A stretch of DNA of 9,618 nt. It comes from a virus (lineage: Duplodnaviria; Heunggongvirae; Uroviricota; Caudoviricetes). The position numbers and the translations under genes are program-made. The notes under the pieces were generated by a model that saw only the letters and a list, made by a program, of their open reading frames with translations, ran no database searches and was not told the DNA's origin. Numbering within the stretch: the stretch's first letter is position 1; each line of letters opens with the position of its first letter. The DNA lies in IMG/VR virus record IMGVR_UViG_2734482579_000011. One strand, 5' to 3'. Positions 243-8,108 of this stretch are shown in pieces.

Positions 243-1325
243 TCATTTTCTCTGGCTGATCTTTACCGGATAACCATCCCGAAGATCAATTAAGTGCTCC
301 GGTTCAGAAGCAAACCATGCATAAGATCCCCACGCCAATTCTGGTATTGCCTTTTTAAAAGGCAGAGCACTTCTGTCCATAAATGCCGTAAGGAATGCAA
401 GATTTTTCTCGCTGAACCCAGCGTCAATAGCCAAATGAGTGAGAGTAACTTTTCGTTCCCTGTTTATAGGCCCATCTGTCGCAACTACTTCAGTGAAAAC
501 TACAAGCATGTCCGAACCCGTTCGGTCCTCTCCCAAATCAATCAAAATAATATCTGGAAGTGCTTTTGAGGCATCAATATTCAGCCCCAATGCTTTTGCC
601 AATACATCATCCTGAGCAACAACTTTATTCCCGGATTCAGACAACCAGAGCACAGTTGGATTCTTAAGAAAATTAGGAGCAAAAACTTCGATGACGGCCT
701 TAGCTATTGTACTTGACGGGCCCGGAGCTAAAGTTCTCTTCTCTCCATTTGGGAAAGTGACGACTACGGCATCAGCAGCAATCACTGCCCCTGATTTCAA
801 TAAACGCAACCTAGCAAGAGCGGCTTTGTTCAAATGATTTTCTTGCCAGGAACTTATTGCACTCAGCAGCGAATCTCCTTCAAGCCCGGCATCAAAGAGT
901 GCTGCAAAAGAGCGATTCAAACTGTAACGAGGACGAGAGGATGTGGTGGGTATACCTTTACGCTCAACAATTGCATTGCAAGGTATTAGGCCATTTTTTA
1001 TAGTTTCATCACGTATTGGCTCACGCGTATTTTCCGCATACCATGCATCAGCAGGCCTTATCTTTTGTTTAGAGAAAGTCATCTTTACCCAGCTTTCTCT
1101 GGACGCATCATCAGTAAGAGCAGCCTGCGAATCTCCCATACTTACAACCTGGCTGGGCCTTATCCATCGCCCCAGCCCCTCAACCGCACCAGCATAAAAC
1201 ATGACAAAAATTGTTTTTGCAGCTATTTCCCGAATTAAATATCCACGATTCTCAGTCCCTTCAGGGAAAATTAATTGTAATCTTTCCCGGATAACATTCA
1301 ATGGGGGAACAACAGGCAGATTCAT
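243..1325 (-). CDS. Putative type II restriction endonuclease (360 aa), partner of the upstream methyltransferase; possibly BsuBI/PstI-like, family unverified
   Basis: ATG at 1325..1323 overlaps the methyltransferase TGA (1324..1322) as ATGA, so the two are co-directional and translationally coupled. Contains LPDIILIDLGED...VVFTEVV, a possible degenerate PD-(D/E)XK core. Lower GC than the phage genes. Family is a recollection-based guess. Confidence 0.6.
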   Translation of the reverse strand: MNLPVVPPLNVIRERLQLIFPEGTENRGYLIREIAAKTIFVMFYAGAVEGLGRWIRPSQVVSMGDSQAALTDDASRESWVKMTFSKQKIRPADAWYAENTREPIRDETIKNGLIPCNAIVERKGIPTTSSRPRYSLNRSFAALFDAGLEGDSLLSAISSWQENHLNKAALARLRLLKSGAVIAADAVVVTFPNGEKRTLAPGPSSTIAKAVIEVFAPNFLKNPTVLWLSESGNKVVAQDDVLAKALGLNIDASKALPDIILIDLGEDRTGSDMLVVFTEVVATDGPINRERKVTLTHLAIDAGFSEKNLAFLTAFMDRSALPFKKAIPELAWGSYAWFASEPEHLIDLRDGYPVKISQRK

Positions 1326-3154
1326 GCAATCATCACTCCATAGAAACCAGCGATAGTTCTCTCAATAATCCGTCTGTGGACGCCAGCATCAATTAACGAT
1401 TGAATCTCCATCACCTGCTCCAGAGAAGGCAACGGGATTGAATTCAATTCATAGGCCGAAACAGCAACACTTCCGCTTATACACCTGAACGCCCGATCGA
1501 CAACATGCGAATTAAGTAGCATATCAATAACATCAGGGCGAACCGCAGAGAACAATCCGTTTGAATATACAATATTAATATGGTTTTCAACTACTACGCC
1601 ACCAGTTTCATCTATAAATCCCTGAGGTAAAATTGCCGCTAAAATCCTTCTGTCCTGTTCCTTCGATGTTGTCCGCTGAACAAGCACACATTCAGATTTT
1701 GTCACAAGGAAACCCTGTTGTGGGGTTATATCGATATAGGGAACATGATTTTTTCTGTCTGCACTAAAACGAAAACCAGCTGAAGTTATTGATTCCGCCC
1801 AGACTAATGGGTAGCTATTTTTTCCTTTCGTCGTACGCAACTGCGACTTAAATCGATTCCAGACTAACTGACCTGTAGAGACTGAGTATCCCAGATCAGC
1901 TAAACGCGTAGACATCTGTTTTAATACATTAAGAAAACAGGCATCATCTTTAACGCGTGGCAAAAGCCACGTTGCTCCACCTTTTTCTATATCAACATTA
2001 CCTATTTTCTCAATTTTTGCTTTGTTCAACCCCTTAGGGACAAGTGAGGATACCTGGGCCCGAACTTTATGTTCTCCCGCCTTGAATGCTGTCAACATTG
2101 TTTCCTGGAGAACATCGTCAAAGACCCCATCCCTGTCAGTGACGAAATCAAGGGCATACGGAGTAGTTTTTTCGGTCAAAAGGGTTCGCAGCGCGGTGAA
2201 ATACTGCCCACCAAGAAAAGAAGTTGGCGTAAGAAATGCAATAACTCCTGTTTTCTCTTTAACCATGCGAACAGCTAAGTCGGTGAACAATCCATATAGA
2301 TTTGCATGACCAAATAACGAACGAGAATATTTTTCTCTCGTTTTAATATCGAGAGTGACACGTCCGTAAGGCGGATTCCCTACCACAAGATCATAACCAG
2401 AAAATTTATCTTGCTGAAGCGCATCAGCAACAATAATTGTATCTTCAGGCAATCTACGTTTTACCTTTACACATAGTGGCATTAGTACAGATTCGAGCAA
2501 TACCAAACTCATCCAAGCCGCAAATGGATCGATCTCTATCCCCTTTAAACGACGACTGATTCTCCTCAACATCCATTCAGGGGAAGACCCCTTGTCTTTT
2601 TTTAACATTCGAATGGCTACTGGTGCCAAAAATGCACCGCCACCACACGCAGGATCAATAACCGATGCATGAGAAAAATCAACACCAGACTTTTCAGCCA
2701 GGTCCAAGAGACGCGCTACCAAAGGTGGGGGGGTATAGTAAGCCCCCAATTCCGAACGGTAAGCGGATGGCAGCATTACCGTATAAATTGACCCAATCAG
2801 ATATCCAGCGTCCTCCGCCGGAAATTGAGCAATAAGCTCACCTGTTCGTTCAGCGAGCTCGCGTGCATCACATGGAATGTCTTCTATGTAAACAGTGTGC
2901 GGTACTGCCCTCATTTTAATGCTGCTTTTTTGCTTTTTTGCAAGGGTATCCCAATATGCAGCTACGATGCTGAAGCAGTATGAGCGGGCATGCATCAACC
3001 TTGACTGCCCGGTTTTGTAATTGCCCGCATAACCTTTGGCCATGGCTTTACAAGTTTGATATCTTTCCAGATTAGAAAACTCATTATCTGTAAAAAAATC
3101 AAAATGTTGCACATTCATAATGTAAAATCCTAATGTATCAAACATGCGGGCCAT
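1322..3154 (-). CDS. Gamma-class N6-adenine DNA methyltransferase (610 aa), Eco57I/TaqI-like catalytic domain with a C-terminal target-recognition region
   Basis: Motif order in the translation: GAYYTPPPLVARLL (motif X), VIDPACGGGAFLAPV (motif I, AdoMet binding), VVGNPPYGR (motif IV, NPPY). About 330 aa follow as a presumptive TRD. Alternative in-frame ATGs at 3145 and 3118; the start is uncertain. Confidence 0.9.
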   Translation of the reverse strand: MARMFDTLGFYIMNVQHFDFFTDNEFSNLERYQTCKAMAKGYAGNYKTGQSRLMHARSYCFSIVAAYWDTLAKKQKSSIKMRAVPHTVYIEDIPCDARELAERTGELIAQFPAEDAGYLIGSIYTVMLPSAYRSELGAYYTPPPLVARLLDLAEKSGVDFSHASVIDPACGGGAFLAPVAIRMLKKDKGSSPEWMLRRISRRLKGIEIDPFAAWMSLVLLESVLMPLCVKVKRRLPEDTIIVADALQQDKFSGYDLVVGNPPYGRVTLDIKTREKYSRSLFGHANLYGLFTDLAVRMVKEKTGVIAFLTPTSFLGGQYFTALRTLLTEKTTPYALDFVTDRDGVFDDVLQETMLTAFKAGEHKVRAQVSSLVPKGLNKAKIEKIGNVDIEKGGATWLLPRVKDDACFLNVLKQMSTRLADLGYSVSTGQLVWNRFKSQLRTTKGKNSYPLVWAESITSAGFRFSADRKNHVPYIDITPQQGFLVTKSECVLVQRTTSKEQDRRILAAILPQGFIDETGGVVVENHINIVYSNGLFSAVRPDVIDMLLNSHVVDRAFRCISGSVAVSAYELNSIPLPSLEQVMEIQSLIDAGVHRRIIERTIAGFYGVMIA

Positions 3155-4967: not shown

Positions 4968-5509
4968 TTACTTCACAACTCCCGGAAAGCTGACATTTGA
5001 ACGCCAGCTATCCCAGTTAAACGTCACCCACCGACAACCGTTCATGGTCATGCGGTCCATAATCCTCTCACCAAGAAGCGTGCTCATTGCGGCATGATTC
5101 AGGTTTGTTAACATCCCGACACTGCACAGTGATGCTGTCCGGCGATCAATTATCTGGTGCAATACCACCTGCTCGTTTTTCGTCTCCCGCTGAATGCCTA
5201 TTTCATCCAGGACCAGCAAATCAACCCCGCAAAGCTCCTGTAAAAATTTTTCACCGGATTTGCCGTTGTCGTAGCTGTCATGCAACACGCTCATGACATC
5301 AGACTCGGTGACGATAATCACGCTGCGCCCCTTCGCCATCAGCCGGTTACCCATCGCCGCTGCAAGGTGATTTTTCCCGGTGCCGGTTTTACCGCTGAAC
5401 ACAAAATTCGTGCACCCGGTCATCAGTTCGTCAGCTATGGATTTGGCCTGGCTCAGCGCGTATTTTTGCCCGTCGTTCTGCACCTGATAATTCGCAAACG
5501 AGCATTTGC
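4968..5509 (-). CDS. DnaC-like helicase loader / IstB-like AAA+ ATPase (phage replication protein), 5' end lost in the N gap
   Basis: Walker A FVFSGKTGTGKNHLAAA and Walker B DLLVLDEIG in the translation; the ORF is open up to the N run at 5510, so the true start lies in or beyond the gap. Confidence 0.85.
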
Positions 5510-5751
5510 NNNNNNNNNNNNNNNNNNNNNNNNNNNNNNNNNNNNNNNNNNNNNNNNNNNNNNNNNNNNNNNNNNNNNNNNNNNNNNNNNNNNNNNNNNN
5601 NNNNNNNNNNNNNNNNNNNNNNNNNNNNNNNNNNNNNNNNNNNNNNNNNNNNNNNNNNNNNNNNNNNNNNNNNNNNNNNNNNNNNNNNNNNNNNNNNNNN
5701 NNNNNNNNNNNNNNNNNNNNNNNNNNNNNNNNNNNNNNNNNNNNNNNNNNN
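5510..5751. other. Run of 242 N (assembly gap or masked sequence)
   Basis: Directly visible. It interrupts the junction between the initiator and the DnaC-like gene; true length and content unknown. Confidence 0.99.
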
Positions 5752-6739
5752 TTACCGGGAGCAACCAGGGGTTTTCAAAATTCCGGTCCGGCCCAAAAAA
5801 CGTCGTCGCTCGCTGAACAAATTCCGTTCCCGCTTTCCCGGTCGCCGCCAGGTATCTCGCGTAACGCCTCACACCATCCAGCATGGTCTCTGGTGGCACC
5901 CCCTCGCGCAATCTGGCCTTCCAGGCACTGAATGCGGATTTCTTCGGGTTTGCCCCGGCACGCAACGGGTATTCCCGCCAGACCTGTTCGAACACATCCG
6001 GATAATCCACTCGTCCCACAGGCTGCCCGGTGTTTTCCGGGGCTACCCGATCGGCTTCCCGCTGAATGGCGGAATCGGCTTCAGGCTGCTGCAGTTGGAG
6101 TGATTGCTCCGGCCTTGCGGTCATCACCTGCTGCACAGCGCCCGAATCGGCTTTCAGCGCATACGCTGAATCGGCTTCCGGTGTCGAGCCTGCTGGCTGA
6201 CCAGGATTGACGGTCTGAACATCCCCTGCCTGGTTCGTGGCGTTTTTTACGCCATGGACCATAGTGTTTTGATCTTCTTTATCTGTATCTTTATCTGTAT
6301 CTGTCGTGACTCGTCGTGACATGTGCGTGACATTTCGTGACGCGCCGTGACAATCGCCATTTTGTTCCCGCTTTCTTTCCCTCTCTCGCTGCGCCCTCTT
6401 GCGCTCTGCAGGAGATTTTGCGGTTTGCGAAATATTGCCGTTGTCCTCTTTAAGCACCTGGCGTTTTTCCCATCCAGTGATTAAATCACCATCAAGTACC
6501 CGCCCCTGCATCGTCTGCAAAATTGAATCAATTACCTCTTCTGTCACGTCGAGCGCACTTGCCAAATCTTCTGTCGTGACATCAATGTGACCTCGCGTGA
6601 CATTTCGTGACGCGCTCACCAGGAGGTGGATATACACTGCCATCACTGTTGCAATTGGCTGCCCTGACACCCTGGCAATTGTTCGCCACTTAGGGTCATT
6701 TGGCATGTCATGCCATAATCTGAGCCAGGCGTTAGCCAT
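5752..6739 (-). CDS. Phage replication initiation / replisome-organiser protein (O-like; YdaU-type context), 3' end lost in the N gap
   Basis: ATG at 6739..6737 with SD-like AGAGGTGA upstream (GTG alternative at 6745). Directly upstream of the DnaC-like gene, as in lambdoid replication modules. Acidic/TDKD linker and internal iterons. The track ORF's tail beyond the gap (to 5453) is a frame artefact. Confidence 0.7.
6277..6304. repeat. Tandem 12-bp repeat (CTTTATCTGTAT x2 plus partial) in an AT-rich stretch immediately beside the iterons
   Basis: Directly visible; encodes the TDKDTDKE acidic linker on the minus strand. It lies 3' of the iterons in the gene's direction, like the AT-rich region of lambda ori. 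Confidence 0.6.
6305..6351. repeat. Iteron-like array: five CGTGAC hexamers at 10-11 bp phasing inside the initiator gene (candidate phage ori)
   Basis: CGTGAC begins at 6305, 6315, 6326, 6336 and 6346. On the coding strand the hexamers fall in different reading frames, so this is a DNA-level periodicity and not a peptide repeat. Confidence 0.55.
6543..6615. repeat. Second iteron-like cluster (GTCACG/CGTGAC units at about 10 bp phasing) containing an exact 21-bp copy of part of the first array
   Basis: GTCACG at 6543; CGTGAC at 6575, 6596 and 6606; TGTGAC at 6586. The 21-mer GCGTGACATTTCGTGACGCGC occurs at 6325..6345 and again at 6595..6615. Confidence 0.5.
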
Positions 6740-6810: not shown

Positions 6811-7236
6811 TCAATGTACTGCCACAGCATTTCCTGCCGGGCCACCACGGTTCATCTGATTGAAACCGGCGATTGCCACTGCGACAAAATCATCAGCGTC
6901 TCTCACCAGTCGTTCATGCGTCTCCACCAGTTCCCGAAAATAAGCTGAACTGTGGCTGCGCATTCGAGCCACCAGCGGAGGTGGCATTGCCCTTTCGATC
7001 GCAGGTAACAACGCCTGAATTTTTTCAACAGCGTCAGGGGTGTCTTTATCCAGCCAACGGAAAATCTTTTGGGTGTTGAGATAAAGCGTGTTGTGCTTGC
7101 TGTCGTTATGCAGAACCGGAAACGTCATTCCCAGTTCGAAATAAACCCTGGTTATTTCAGCTGCCGGAACTTTTTCACCGTCCGGATGCGCCCAGGCTTT
7201 CATCGCCATGCGGATGTGTTCATGCTTGATTTTCAT
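6811..7236 (-). CDS. ydaT: YdaT-like protein (141 aa), reported as a CII-like regulator in Rac/CP-933P-type prophages
   Basis: ATG at 7236..7234 overlaps the upstream gene's TGA (ATGA). Size and position immediately after the Cro-like gene match the ydaS-ydaT arrangement; homology is recollection-based. Confidence 0.55.
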   Translation of the reverse strand: MKIKHEHIRMAMKAWAHPDGEKVPAAEITRVYFELGMTFPVLHNDSKHNTLYLNTQKIFRWLDKDTPDAVEKIQALLPAIERAMPPPLVARMRSHSSAYFRELVETHERLVRDADDFVAVAIAGFNQMNRGGPAGNAVAVH

Positions 7237-7496
7237 GAATCAACCCCCGCCGATGGTTGTGTGTTAGCCTGAAACTCAGCAGGCAAGCCGTCAGTTGGGT
7301 TGGGGTAGGTTTTACTGTCAATCTCATGTGGGGTCACCACCCATCCCGTTGCTTCACACCAACGTAATATTTTTTCTCCTGTAAGTTTTGCACGCCCCGT
7401 TATAACGTGGCTGACCATCCCTTGGGATGCGCCAACAATCTCAGCAAATGAACTCTGGGTTATATGAAAATGATGCAAATATTCTCCAAGATTCAT
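7233..7496 (-). CDS. ydaS: Cro-like / YdaS-family HTH DNA-binding protein (87 aa)
   Basis: HTH-like segment ITQSSFAEIVGASQGMVSHVITGRAKLTGEKILRWCEATG; divergent from the repressor gene across an operator-rich intergenic region. Start taken as ATG at 7496 (the track ORF begins at a TTG at 7523). Confidence 0.7.
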   Translation of the reverse strand: MNLGEYLHHFHITQSSFAEIVGASQGMVSHVITGRAKLTGEKILRWCEATGWVVTPHEIDSKTYPNPTDGLPAEFQANTQPSAGVDS

Positions 7497-7532
7497 AATC
7501 CGCCCTATGTGATGTGTTACCAATGCATAATT

Positions 7533-7595
7533 AATAGCACTGTTATTTTTAAAAGTAAATAGTGATACTATTTCAAAGTGATTAGCAATCTTATT
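7533..7595. promoter_or_regulatory. OR-like operator cluster with divergent promoters between the cro-like and repressor genes
   Basis: Three 15-bp imperfect palindromes about 24 bp apart: AATAGCACTGTTATT (7533..7547), AATAGTGATACTATT (7558..7572), and weaker ATTAGCAATCTTATT (7581..7595). Candidate minus-strand promoter (-35 at 7554..7559, -10 at 7531..7536) and plus-strand promoter (-35 TTCAAA 7572..7577, -10 TAGAAT 7595..7600) overlap them. Confidence 0.55.
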
Positions 7596-7607
7596 AGAAT
7601 TGGATGT

Positions 7608-8108
7608 ATGAAAAGAAAATCATTGTCAGACACCGACCTCAACGCCGCCAGAAGACTGAAAGAAATCTGGATGGCAAAGAAATCTCAGTTGGGATTGACT
7701 CAGGAACGTGCGGCGGAAATTATGGGGTTTTCAACACAAGGGGCGGTAAGTCACTACCTAAATGGTCAAACCCCACTAAACCTTGAGGCTGTTCTAAAGT
7801 TTGCTGGCTTACTGAAAGTTCCCCCTGAGTCAATCAGGCCAGACATGGTAGATTTGCTGCAAATTGCAAGGATGTATTGTCGAGAACCACAGCAAGATAA
7901 CATAGTCGCATTACCAGCAGACACAGAACAAACAGAGGATGAACTACCGTTTGCCGTAGAGCCGATGGAACGAGATTTAATCCATACGTTCAGAGCTTTT
8001 CCGAAAGAAGATCAAGAACACATGCTTCAGGAGATGAAAGATAAAAAAGAATCAATGGATCGTACGGTTGCGCGGTGGTTAGCTGCACAAAAAGGCCGTC
8101 GCGCCTAA
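7608..8108 (+). CDS. paaR: CI-like HTH repressor without a peptidase domain (166 aa); probable PaaR-type regulator of the downstream toxin-antitoxin pair and candidate prophage immunity repressor
   Basis: HTH segment LGLTQERAAEIMGFSTQGAVSHYLNGQTP; ATG at 7608 (the track ORF starts at a GTG at 7578). First gene of a three-gene plus-strand operon; symbol assigned by recollection of the CP-933P paaR2-paaA2-parE2 locus. Confidence 0.7.
   Translation: MKRKSLSDTDLNAARRLKEIWMAKKSQLGLTQERAAEIMGFSTQGAVSHYLNGQTPLNLEAVLKFAGLLKVPPESIRPDMVDLLQIARMYCREPQQDNIVALPADTEQTEDELPFAVEPMERDLIHTFRAFPKEDQEHMLQEMKDKKESMDRTVARWLAAQKGRRA

Follow-up and report, generated by a model that had tools for sequence, protein, structure and literature searches.

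The principle that a replication origin can lie inside the gene of its own initiator is already known. Two arrays of one iteron, read by a single initiator, are found in the plasmids P1 (oriR and incA) and F (incB and incC), with one array at the DNA-unwinding element (DUE) and the other serving for control. In bacteriophage lambda the origin (ori) is located inside gene O, the linker-coding part of which carries the iterons, with an AT-rich tract next and a palindrome after it (PMC6022878). Among the replisome organizers of Gram-positive phages (PMC6316719; PMC8965321), gp38 of SPP1 (at oriL), Rep2009 of Tuc2009 and ORF13 of TP901-1 bind direct repeats in their own gene beside an AT-rich DUE, and the organizer ORF11 of r1t is paired with a DnaC-like loader. 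Iteron plasmids likewise carry helically phased iterons, and their initiators can also bind the single-stranded DNA (ssDNA) of the DUE (PMC10797057). The N-terminal winged-helix domain of DnaD, from the Firmicute primosome, is also listed among the closest known systems. Here, we analysed a stretch of 9,618 nucleotides (hereafter the window) from the IMG/VR virus record IMGVR_UViG_2734482579_000011 (Caudoviricetes), in which a replisome-organizer-like initiator gene contains two arrays, A and B, of the hexamer GTCACG (CGTGAC on the plus strand). This region is very probably the vegetative, theta-type origin of a lambdoid Escherichia coli prophage, located inside its own initiator gene, and we consider it likely that it works as an initiator-bound iteron origin having array B and the adjacent AT-rich tract as its core. 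The elements of the locus are the following:

5752..6739, minus strand: readable part of the initiator gene, replisome-organizer-like, with the ATG at 6739-6737 and a GAGGTG Shine-Dalgarno sequence upstream.
6575..6611, minus strand: array A, four iterons in phase, each reading GTCACG on the gene strand except the third, GTCACA; gene nucleotides 129-165, codons 43-55.
6543..6548, plus strand: inverted iteron, GTCACG on the plus strand and CGTGAC on the gene strand, at codons 64-66 (D-V-T).
6305..6351, minus strand: array B, five perfect iterons in steps of 10, 11, 10 and 10 bp, at gene nucleotides 389-435, codons 130-145 (CHGASRNVTHMSRRVT); proposed core initiator-binding array.
6262..6304, minus strand: AT-rich and purine-rich tract, AGATAC-AGATAA-AGATAC-AGATAA-AGAAGATC, containing a 12-bp tandem repeat; proposed DUE.
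6231..6261, no strand assigned: imperfect inverted repeat of 13 pairs when G-T is allowed; its predicted fold has an outer stem of 4 bp and an inner stem (GGCGT/ACGCC) of 6 bp.

The likeness to the lambda ori consists in the order of the elements, since, reading along with transcription, the linker-coding iterons of array B come first, an AT-rich tract with strand asymmetry second and an inverted repeat third. However, lambda has four dyad-symmetric sites of about 19 bp in a single array, whereas the window has a 6-bp core with a period of 10-11 bp in two arrays, the second of which is inside the coding sequence (CDS) of the DNA-binding domain. A preliminary description of this DNA had assigned the iterons to the stretch of the initiator gene that encodes the linker and had recognised in them the lambda O/ori architecture; the placement holds for array B (codons 130-145) and fails for the second cluster (codons 43-55, in the DNA-binding domain), while the architecture holds for the linker iterons and the AT tract that follows them and not for the initiator, which is not an O homologue (no PF04492 match). 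Gram-positive replisome organizers share with the locus the repeats within their own gene beside an AT-rich tract and, in the case of r1t, the pairing with a DnaC-like loader, although the second gp38 site of SPP1 (oriR) is about 13 kb away and the arrays of the window are approximately 230 bp apart inside the gene. The plasmids P1 and F, in turn, resemble it in having two arrays of the same short direct repeat, one of which is beside an AT-rich tract, and differ in that the initiator of the window is not of the RepA/RepE WH1-WH2 type, both arrays are inside the CDS, and there are no DnaA boxes; neither a DnaA box nor an integration host factor (IHF) consensus was found in the array region. 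Two features of a general iteron-type theta origin are seen at the locus: three or more direct repeats that are helically phased and under conservation at the DNA level, and an A+T-rich element beside them. What appears to be new is a proteobacterial branch with 6-bp iterons at a 10-bp period, two arrays of which one is in the DNA-binding-domain CDS, and a predicted, conserved AGATAA-type DUE. Neither a description of this origin nor a published study of the module was found in the literature searched, which took in phage D3, the Eru replication types of Stx phages and oriJ of Rac; since an origin within the initiator gene is a well-known principle, the finding extends knowledge and overturns nothing.

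Perfect CGTGAC copies start on the plus strand at 6305, 6315, 6326, 6336 and 6346 in array B, within the span given previously, and at 6575, 6596 and 6606 in array A, which also includes an in-phase 5/6 copy (TGTGAC) at 6586; a single copy in the opposite orientation (GTCACG on the plus strand) is found at 6543. Considering both strands of the whole window, there are nine exact copies of CGTGAC/GTCACG, against the 3.15 ± 1.85 expected from dinucleotide-shuffled windows, and all of them are inside 6305-6611. By our own arithmetic, the confinement of 9/9 copies to 307 of approximately 9,376 readable bases has a chance of about 1e-11 under uniform placement. When the gene was codon-shuffled, at least three copies of one hexamer in each array region were obtained in 1 of 2,000 trials. 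The exact 21-nt copy that the two clusters had been reported to share (GCGTGACATTTCGTGACGCGC) is indeed present at both 6325 and 6595, and the conserved unit is the 6-bp core at a period of 10-11 bp, with no conservation past the hexamer. Because a 10-bp period is not a multiple of three, the hexamers read in turn as V-T, C-H and S-R on the coding (minus) strand and fall in all three frames, which agrees with the different reading frames recognised before. The gene also contains GAATCGGCTT four times, at 6048 (with two mismatches), 6072, 6144 and 6168 (spacings of 24, 72 and 24; region 6048-6177). These copies are all in frame, encode the EADS/EADR peptide repeats of the disordered linker, and look like an ordinary in-frame duplication, in contrast to the out-of-frame 10-bp iterons.

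Homologous loci were retrieved by tblastn against phage genomes and by a scan of one genome per bacterial species, for a total of approximately 75 loci from gamma-, beta- and alpha-proteobacteria and a few others, with 35-99% identity in the N-terminal domain (N-domain) of the initiator. A scan of viral contigs returned near-identical E. coli sequences only, and the divergence came from the other two scans. Synonymous sites were compared in 20 diverged genes of the GTCACG class, having a mean amino acid identity of 73% and a third-position identity of 47%. Synonymous diversity was 0.10 in the codons overlapping the hexamers vs 0.58 elsewhere (Mann-Whitney p=3.7e-7), which bears out the earlier proposal that the repetition is selected at the DNA level. 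The codons for V47 (GTC), T48 (ACG), G50 (GGT), H51 (CAC), V54 (GTC) and T55 (ACG) are the same in 20/20 homologues, and V65, in the inverted copy, is encoded by GTG in 18/18; the invariant Leu, Arg, Pro and Gly residues outside the hexamers use three to six codons. In the Aeromonas phage pAEv1818 and in the D3-like Pseudomonas phage phi1 (both at about 70% amino acid identity), GTCACG arrays with a 10-bp period are found at the same two positions. Array B counts five copies in the window, three in pAEv1818 and four in phi1 with the 10-bp register kept, and the peptides it encodes differ (ACHDASRNVTTD in pAEv1818, DDVTQCHAESRNVTLY in phi1 and DCHGASRNVTHMSRRVTTD in the window). A comparison of hexamer phasing with peptide sequence among homologues had been put forward in the preliminary description as a check, and its outcome is that phasing is kept while the copy number and the peptide of array B vary. 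Overall, array B is present as at least two phased copies in 54/74 loci. Over the arrays of all loci, the gaps between successive hexamer copies are of 10 bp in 174 cases and of 11 bp in 35. The hexamers are kept by selection on the DNA, and not on the encoded protein.

In most homologous loci array A is found at the same place, always with the hexamer proper to that locus, and its variations are informative. Two additional iterons, corresponding to a TCHGVS(L/R) peptide insert in a loop of the N-domain, are present in some alleles of E. coli and Escherichia albertii (the E. albertii locus L088 and the proteins P0006, P0023, P0085 and P0117), and the insert obeys the VT/CH/SR three-frame code of the hexamer. 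In Ferrovibrio, Lysobacter, Stenotrophomonas and Solilutibacter prophages (L152, L154, L149 and L153), array A is displaced to codons ~22-36 (gene nucleotides ~65-107), in another part of the N-domain, which is its position in the Xanthomonadales homologues instead of codons 43-55; in L152 and L154 it is also inverted relative to array B, and in L123, L142 and L150 it is missing. Such plasticity is of a kind expected only of a DNA element, and array B with the tract that follows it is the constant part. The distances from the last iteron of A to the first of B cluster at about 189, 202, 211, 219, 229, 239 and 248 bp, with R=0.55 at a period of 10.0 over 46 non-independent loci, which is suggestive of helical phasing between the two arrays. 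The idea that the two arrays might result from a duplication does not hold for a recent event, as they represent an ancient feature conserved across the homologous loci.

The hexamer itself changes in concert in both arrays and in the inverted copy, the same one being the enriched word of both arrays in approximately 50/69 genome and phage loci. Five classes were recognised, GTCACG, GTAACG, CGAACG, GCAACG and ACTACG, the common denominator of which is NNN-ACG(C) every 10 bp. The GTCACG class spans Enterobacterales, Aeromonas, Pseudomonas, Bordetella, Acidovorax, Chromobacterium and Xanthomonadales; GTAACG is found in Pantoea, Enterobacter, Marinobacter and Sphingomonas, CGAACG(C) in many beta-proteobacterial, acidobacterial and alpha-proteobacterial loci, GCAACG in the Ralstonia phage Hennie, Cupriavidus and Burkholderia, and ACTACG in two loci. 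In Hennie the inverted site is CGTTGC, the inverse of its own GCAACG iteron, and the DVT peptide becomes DVA. Two classes can be present within one host genus, as seen for Pseudomonas (GTCACG/CGAACG), Serratia (GTCACG/ACTACG) and Pantoea (GTAACG/ACTACG). The class is thus independent of the host, which makes a conserved host protein unlikely as the reader of the hexamer; the reader is likely a phage-encoded protein diverging with the module, most simply the N-domain of the initiator itself.

The AT-rich 12-bp tandem repeat that had been noticed flanking the hexamers was recovered as TCTTTATCTGTA x2.2 at 6276-6302 (Tandem Repeats Finder, TRF), inside the GC minimum of the gene (27.5% at 6260-6299) and abutting array B. 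Across 54 loci, the 45 nt after the last iteron of array B have 35% GC vs a gene mean of 55% (Wilcoxon p=1.6e-10), and 73% of their bases are purines on the coding strand. At least three AGATA motifs within 48 nt are found on the coding strand in 37/74 loci and on the other strand in 0/74, the spacing being 6 in 95 cases and the background frequency 0.58 per kb. Codon usage is skewed accordingly: in the 15 codons after array B, Asp is encoded by GAT in 92% of cases vs 46% elsewhere (p=8e-33), Lys by AAA in 80% vs 51% (p=4e-11), and Thr by ACA in 75% vs 16%. As the bias is seen even in hosts where the gene exceeds 60% GC, low stability, and probably the motif as well, is selected as DNA whatever the iteron class. 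We read the tract after array B as the unwinding element, a prediction based on its composition and conservation.

Directly after the AT tract, the hairpin at 6231-6261 has a DNA folding energy of -8.7 kcal/mol (z=-3.4). In about 14 other loci a perfect stem of 7-11 bp is located 25-50 nt after array B, with unrelated stem sequences and a loop which is often T(A/G)AC. This hairpin could be a structural signal at the DNA or RNA level, e.g. a priming or loading site or a cruciform. Loci with a hairpin after the AT tract include L089, L096, L103, L104, L119, L124, L128, L138, L142 and L151.

The 3' end of the initiator gene enters a 242-base run of N (5510-5751), in which the DnaC-like gene has its 5' end hidden as well; judging from homologues of 356 amino acids, the run contains the last ~27 codons of the initiator, and the stop is expected near 5669. 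The 329 readable residues share 96% identity with P0001, an E. coli protein of 356 amino acids to which NCBI gives the name 'phage replisome organizer'. An isolated phage, Tritos (L159, OV696610), has this initiator and this putative origin as well, at 32105-33638, and the Tritos orthologue matches PHROG 3729 ('replication initiation protein') end to end (E=1e-257), while its C-terminal tail has a weak likeness to the C-terminus of the primosomal protein DnaT (NF002770, E=0.0015). An AlphaFold (AF2) model, built from a shallow alignment, gives residues 1-90 (the N-domain) a helix-helix-helix-beta-hairpin topology, winged-helix-like, with a predicted local distance difference test score (pLDDT) of 60-83; residues 128-244 are disordered and residues 245-333 form a confident helical C-terminal domain (pLDDT about 90). 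The disordered linker is encoded in part by array B and the AT-rich tract. Residues 43-55, specified by array A, close helix 29-49 of the N-domain and form the loop that leads to helix 56-63, whereas the inverted copy specifies residues 64-66, at the turn between helices 2 and 3 in the helix-turn-helix (HTH). No clear pattern emerged when class-specific recognition residues were sought outside the segment encoded by array A.

Sequence searches in Pfam, NCBIfam and PDB did not assign the N-domain to a firm family, as they returned sub-threshold matches to PF09681 and TIGR01714 only and no PDB match, and a Foldseek search of the AF2 model against PDB gave nothing at E<1. PF09681 aligns with the N-domain of the window over model positions 1-119 of 121, with 16.4 bits (E=0.009) against a cut-off of 23.3; among 71 homologues the best value was E=7e-4, with E<=0.01 in 5/71. 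TIGR01714 scored 15.4 bits against a cut-off of 49.8. The N-domain may be, at best, a remote and sub-threshold relative of the PF09681 replisome organizers. The likeness to these organizers also includes the NCBI name and this full-length, weak PF09681/TIGR01714 alignment, and the differences include the sub-threshold score, the proteobacterial hosts and the unrelated iteron sequence. PF04492 (Phage_rep_O) had no match to the window protein at E<=0.01, nor to the full-length Tritos orthologue at E<=10, and this lack of similarity separates both proteins from lambda O. Like lambda O, the window protein combines an N-terminal origin-specific domain with a C-terminal partner-specific one, and its gene is downstream of cro/cII-type genes. 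In place of lambda P, the partner in the window is a loader of the DnaC/IstB-type AAA+ family.

Based on these elements, the following mechanism is hypothesised. The winged-helix-like N-domain would bind the 6-bp core GTCACG, which recurs every 10-11 bp, so that all the copies face one side of the helix. N-domains assembled on array B (and on array A) along this face would form a nucleoprotein structure which destabilises and opens the adjacent (AGATAM)n tract, after which the helical C-terminal domain would bring in the host DnaB via the DnaC-like loader. Transcription from the early promoter would pass through the origin, as in lambda. Array A, about 230 bp upstream in the DNA-binding-domain CDS, would be an auxiliary binding platform for the same protein, cooperating with array B as an enhancer by looping or wrapping, to which the clustered distances between the arrays would point, or else acting as a control site through titration, handcuffing or a transcription block.

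A more far-reaching proposal, which we consider tentative and somewhat doubtful, is that the locus follows a conserved three-part origin grammar, undescribed for any phage, composed of an auxiliary array, a core array and a sequence-specific ssDNA tract. If this were the case, array A would reside in the CDS of the DNA-binding domain of its own reader, with a loop sequence dictated by the binding site and with flexible orientation and position. The core array, ~190-300 bp off with a tendency to the 10-bp register, would suggest that the DNA loops or that the initiator forms an unbroken filament. Finally, the (AGATAA)n tract, specific to one strand, would be read as a single strand by the initiator or by the host DnaA, similarly to DnaA-trios or to the binding of the DUE by Rep proteins; its AGATAA/AGATAC form (37/74 loci) is kept across the iteron classes, though iteron specificity has switched at least four times.

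A number of points weigh against an initiator-bound origin. Iterons located within the initiator gene are bound to be linked to its N-domain, and co-variation alone is therefore no proof that the initiator is the reader. In 35/37 loci the DK/DT peptide repeat that the AT tract specifies uses a single frame, and some contribution of the peptide to the conservation of the tract may exist. About 20/74 loci are without a clean array B under an exact-hexamer criterion, and several are without array A, which is thus not essential everywhere. The similarity of the N-domain to PF09681 is below the cut-off (16.4 vs 23.3 bits), and the literature searched yielded no experimental binding, unwinding or autonomous replication for this family.

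Among the alternatives, the arrays could be initiator sites mainly devoted to the control of supply, by roadblock, autoregulation, titration or handcuffing as at P1 incA and F incC, with unwinding taking place elsewhere. Two arrays of identical iterons around or in the rep gene, one being a control locus, are the arrangement of P1 and F, and the variability of array A in position, copy number and orientation (L152, L154), together with its absence from L123, L142 and L150, points to an accessory or control role. Nevertheless, array B is almost invariably followed by the strand-asymmetric AT tract kept at synonymous sites, which is the signature of an unwinding element, and no other hexamer cluster is found in the window or in the full Tritos genome, nor any hexamer in the promoter region 7523-7578 of the window; we regard this explanation as rather unlikely. 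It is very improbable that the hexamers are the sites of another protein, such as a host factor, a YdaT/CII-like protein or a repressor. The linkage of iteron and initiator is admittedly trivial, which leaves the reader unproven, and a CII-like gene is directly upstream; yet the hexamer class differs within a host genus and is shared across orders, which speaks against a conserved host factor, and the neighbouring genes differ among the E. coli, Aeromonas and Pseudomonas phages sharing GTCACG and the N-domain. In the region shown for phi1 there is no annotated YdaT/CII-like gene, the partner being a 610-amino-acid 'replication protein P', and the origin region of the window lacks both DnaA boxes and the IHF consensus.

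The repeats might also have arisen as a side effect of repetition in the peptide, or of a neutral duplication within the gene, without any function as DNA. The 21-nt copy is in frame at an offset of 270 nt, with ASRNVT encoded both times, and genuine in-frame repeats exist in the gene (the four copies of GAATCGGCTT). Against this, the hexamers occupy all three frames, their synonymous positions hardly vary from genus to genus, the register stays fixed under varying copy number and peptide, the hexamer changes in concert in both arrays, and no homologue having the same peptide with scrambled codons was seen, so that a by-product is scarcely plausible. A negligible probability is likewise attributed to a packaging (pac/terminase) or partition (centromere-like) site: phased short repeats are known also from the sites of terminase small subunits and from plasmid centromeres, but in Tritos the terminase genes are at the genome ends, ~32 kb from the initiator gene, there are no par genes nearby, and the element accompanies the initiator N-domain in every case, irrespective of the structural module. 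The origin reading advanced in the preliminary description, in the form of an initiator-bound iteron origin, finds support in this comparison.

The module appears in different combinations. The N-domain, both arrays and the AT tract travel together, and the C-terminal domain and the partner gene vary, the latter being DnaC-like in the window and in pAEv1818, the 'replication protein P' in phi1 and DnaB in Hennie; other E. coli alleles have C-terminal domains of the DnaT type (PF17948). In the E. coli proteins P0061, P0043 and P0110, an unrelated N-domain (MRDYAKVSPRFW…) is joined to the same linker end and C-terminal domain, with the recombination junction at the acidic QEQE/DK linker, and represents a different origin-specificity module on the same helicase-recruiting domain. 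P0021 (E. coli, 302 amino acids) has an in-frame deletion of most of array B, the AT tract and the hairpin codons (…DCHGAS|PEADSAY…), which resembles the lambda ori-minus in-frame deletions; this allele may mark replication-dead prophages. In Tritos, the initiator gene is followed by a gene for a 140-amino-acid hypothetical protein in place of the DnaC-like loader; the loader may thus be non-essential or have a substitute. In its complete genome of 46 kb, this phage has nine hexamer copies in 400 bp of the initiator gene, and 16 scattered singletons vs ~20 expected. No second hexamer cluster was found in it outside the initiator gene, and hence there is no distant second site like oriR of SPP1, nor an operator-like cluster.

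The replication module is present in 1,817 of 5,426 complete E. coli genomes, and its relatives are found in gamma-, beta- and alpha-proteobacterial prophages, including D3-like Pseudomonas aeruginosa phages. The origin has no annotation in the records inspected, and among the matches listed for E. coli genomes the protein only is annotated. A search of a plasmid collection gave no minimal replicon with this module; the matches were plasmids of large size, chromosomes filed there by mistake and two P. aeruginosa records of 50.9 kb, close in length to the genomes of D3-like phages. A known origin provides a testable handle on prophage induction and onion-skin replication, and accounts for the odd conserved peptide (VT/CH/SR, DK/DT), which would be a side effect of signals in the DNA. 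Moreover, the GTCACG, GTAACG, CGAACG, GCAACG and ACTACG classes offer a natural series of matched initiator-iteron specificities for the study of the co-evolution of an initiator with its multiple sites, and orthogonal replicons are a possible yield.

Directly downstream of the initiator gene is the gene of the putative partner:

4968..5509, minus strand: DnaC-like helicase-loader gene, with its 5' end in the masked run.

Its product matches PF01695 (IstB_IS21, E=5.6e-18), the NCBIfam entry PRK12377 (E=9e-101), DnaC PRK07952 (E=5e-64) and PHROG 50 ('DnaC-like helicase loader'), in keeping with the pairing of an initiator with a DnaC-like gene proposed earlier, to which the modular nature of the initiator can be added. 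The order on the minus strand is a cro-like HTH gene (7233-7523), a YdaT/CII-like gene (6811-7236), the initiator, the DnaC/IstB-like AAA+ loader, DUF1627 and DUF977, with a divergent repressor gene at 7578-8108. This layout is that of the early-right operon of a lambdoid prophage, with the initiator in place of lambda O. The immunity region (6811-7236, 7233-8108) is of the Rac/Qin (DicA/DicC-YdaS/YdaT) type, and the Tritos record places DicF and dicB beyond its own repressor gene, outside the extent of the window. No Rfam family and no tRNA were found in the window, and promoter and terminator matches had the frequency expected from shuffling. In the origin region these matches were limited to the terminator-like hairpin at 6231-6261 and to a 9/12 promoter-like match at 6327-6354, which overlaps array B. 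The prophage also carries cargo downstream of the replication module: on the minus strand at 243-3154 there are the two genes of a type II restriction-modification pair, one for an endonuclease of the BsuBI/PstI family (243-1325; PF06616, E=9e-45) and the other (1322-3154) for an N6-adenine methyltransferase of the Eco57I/N6_Mtase type.

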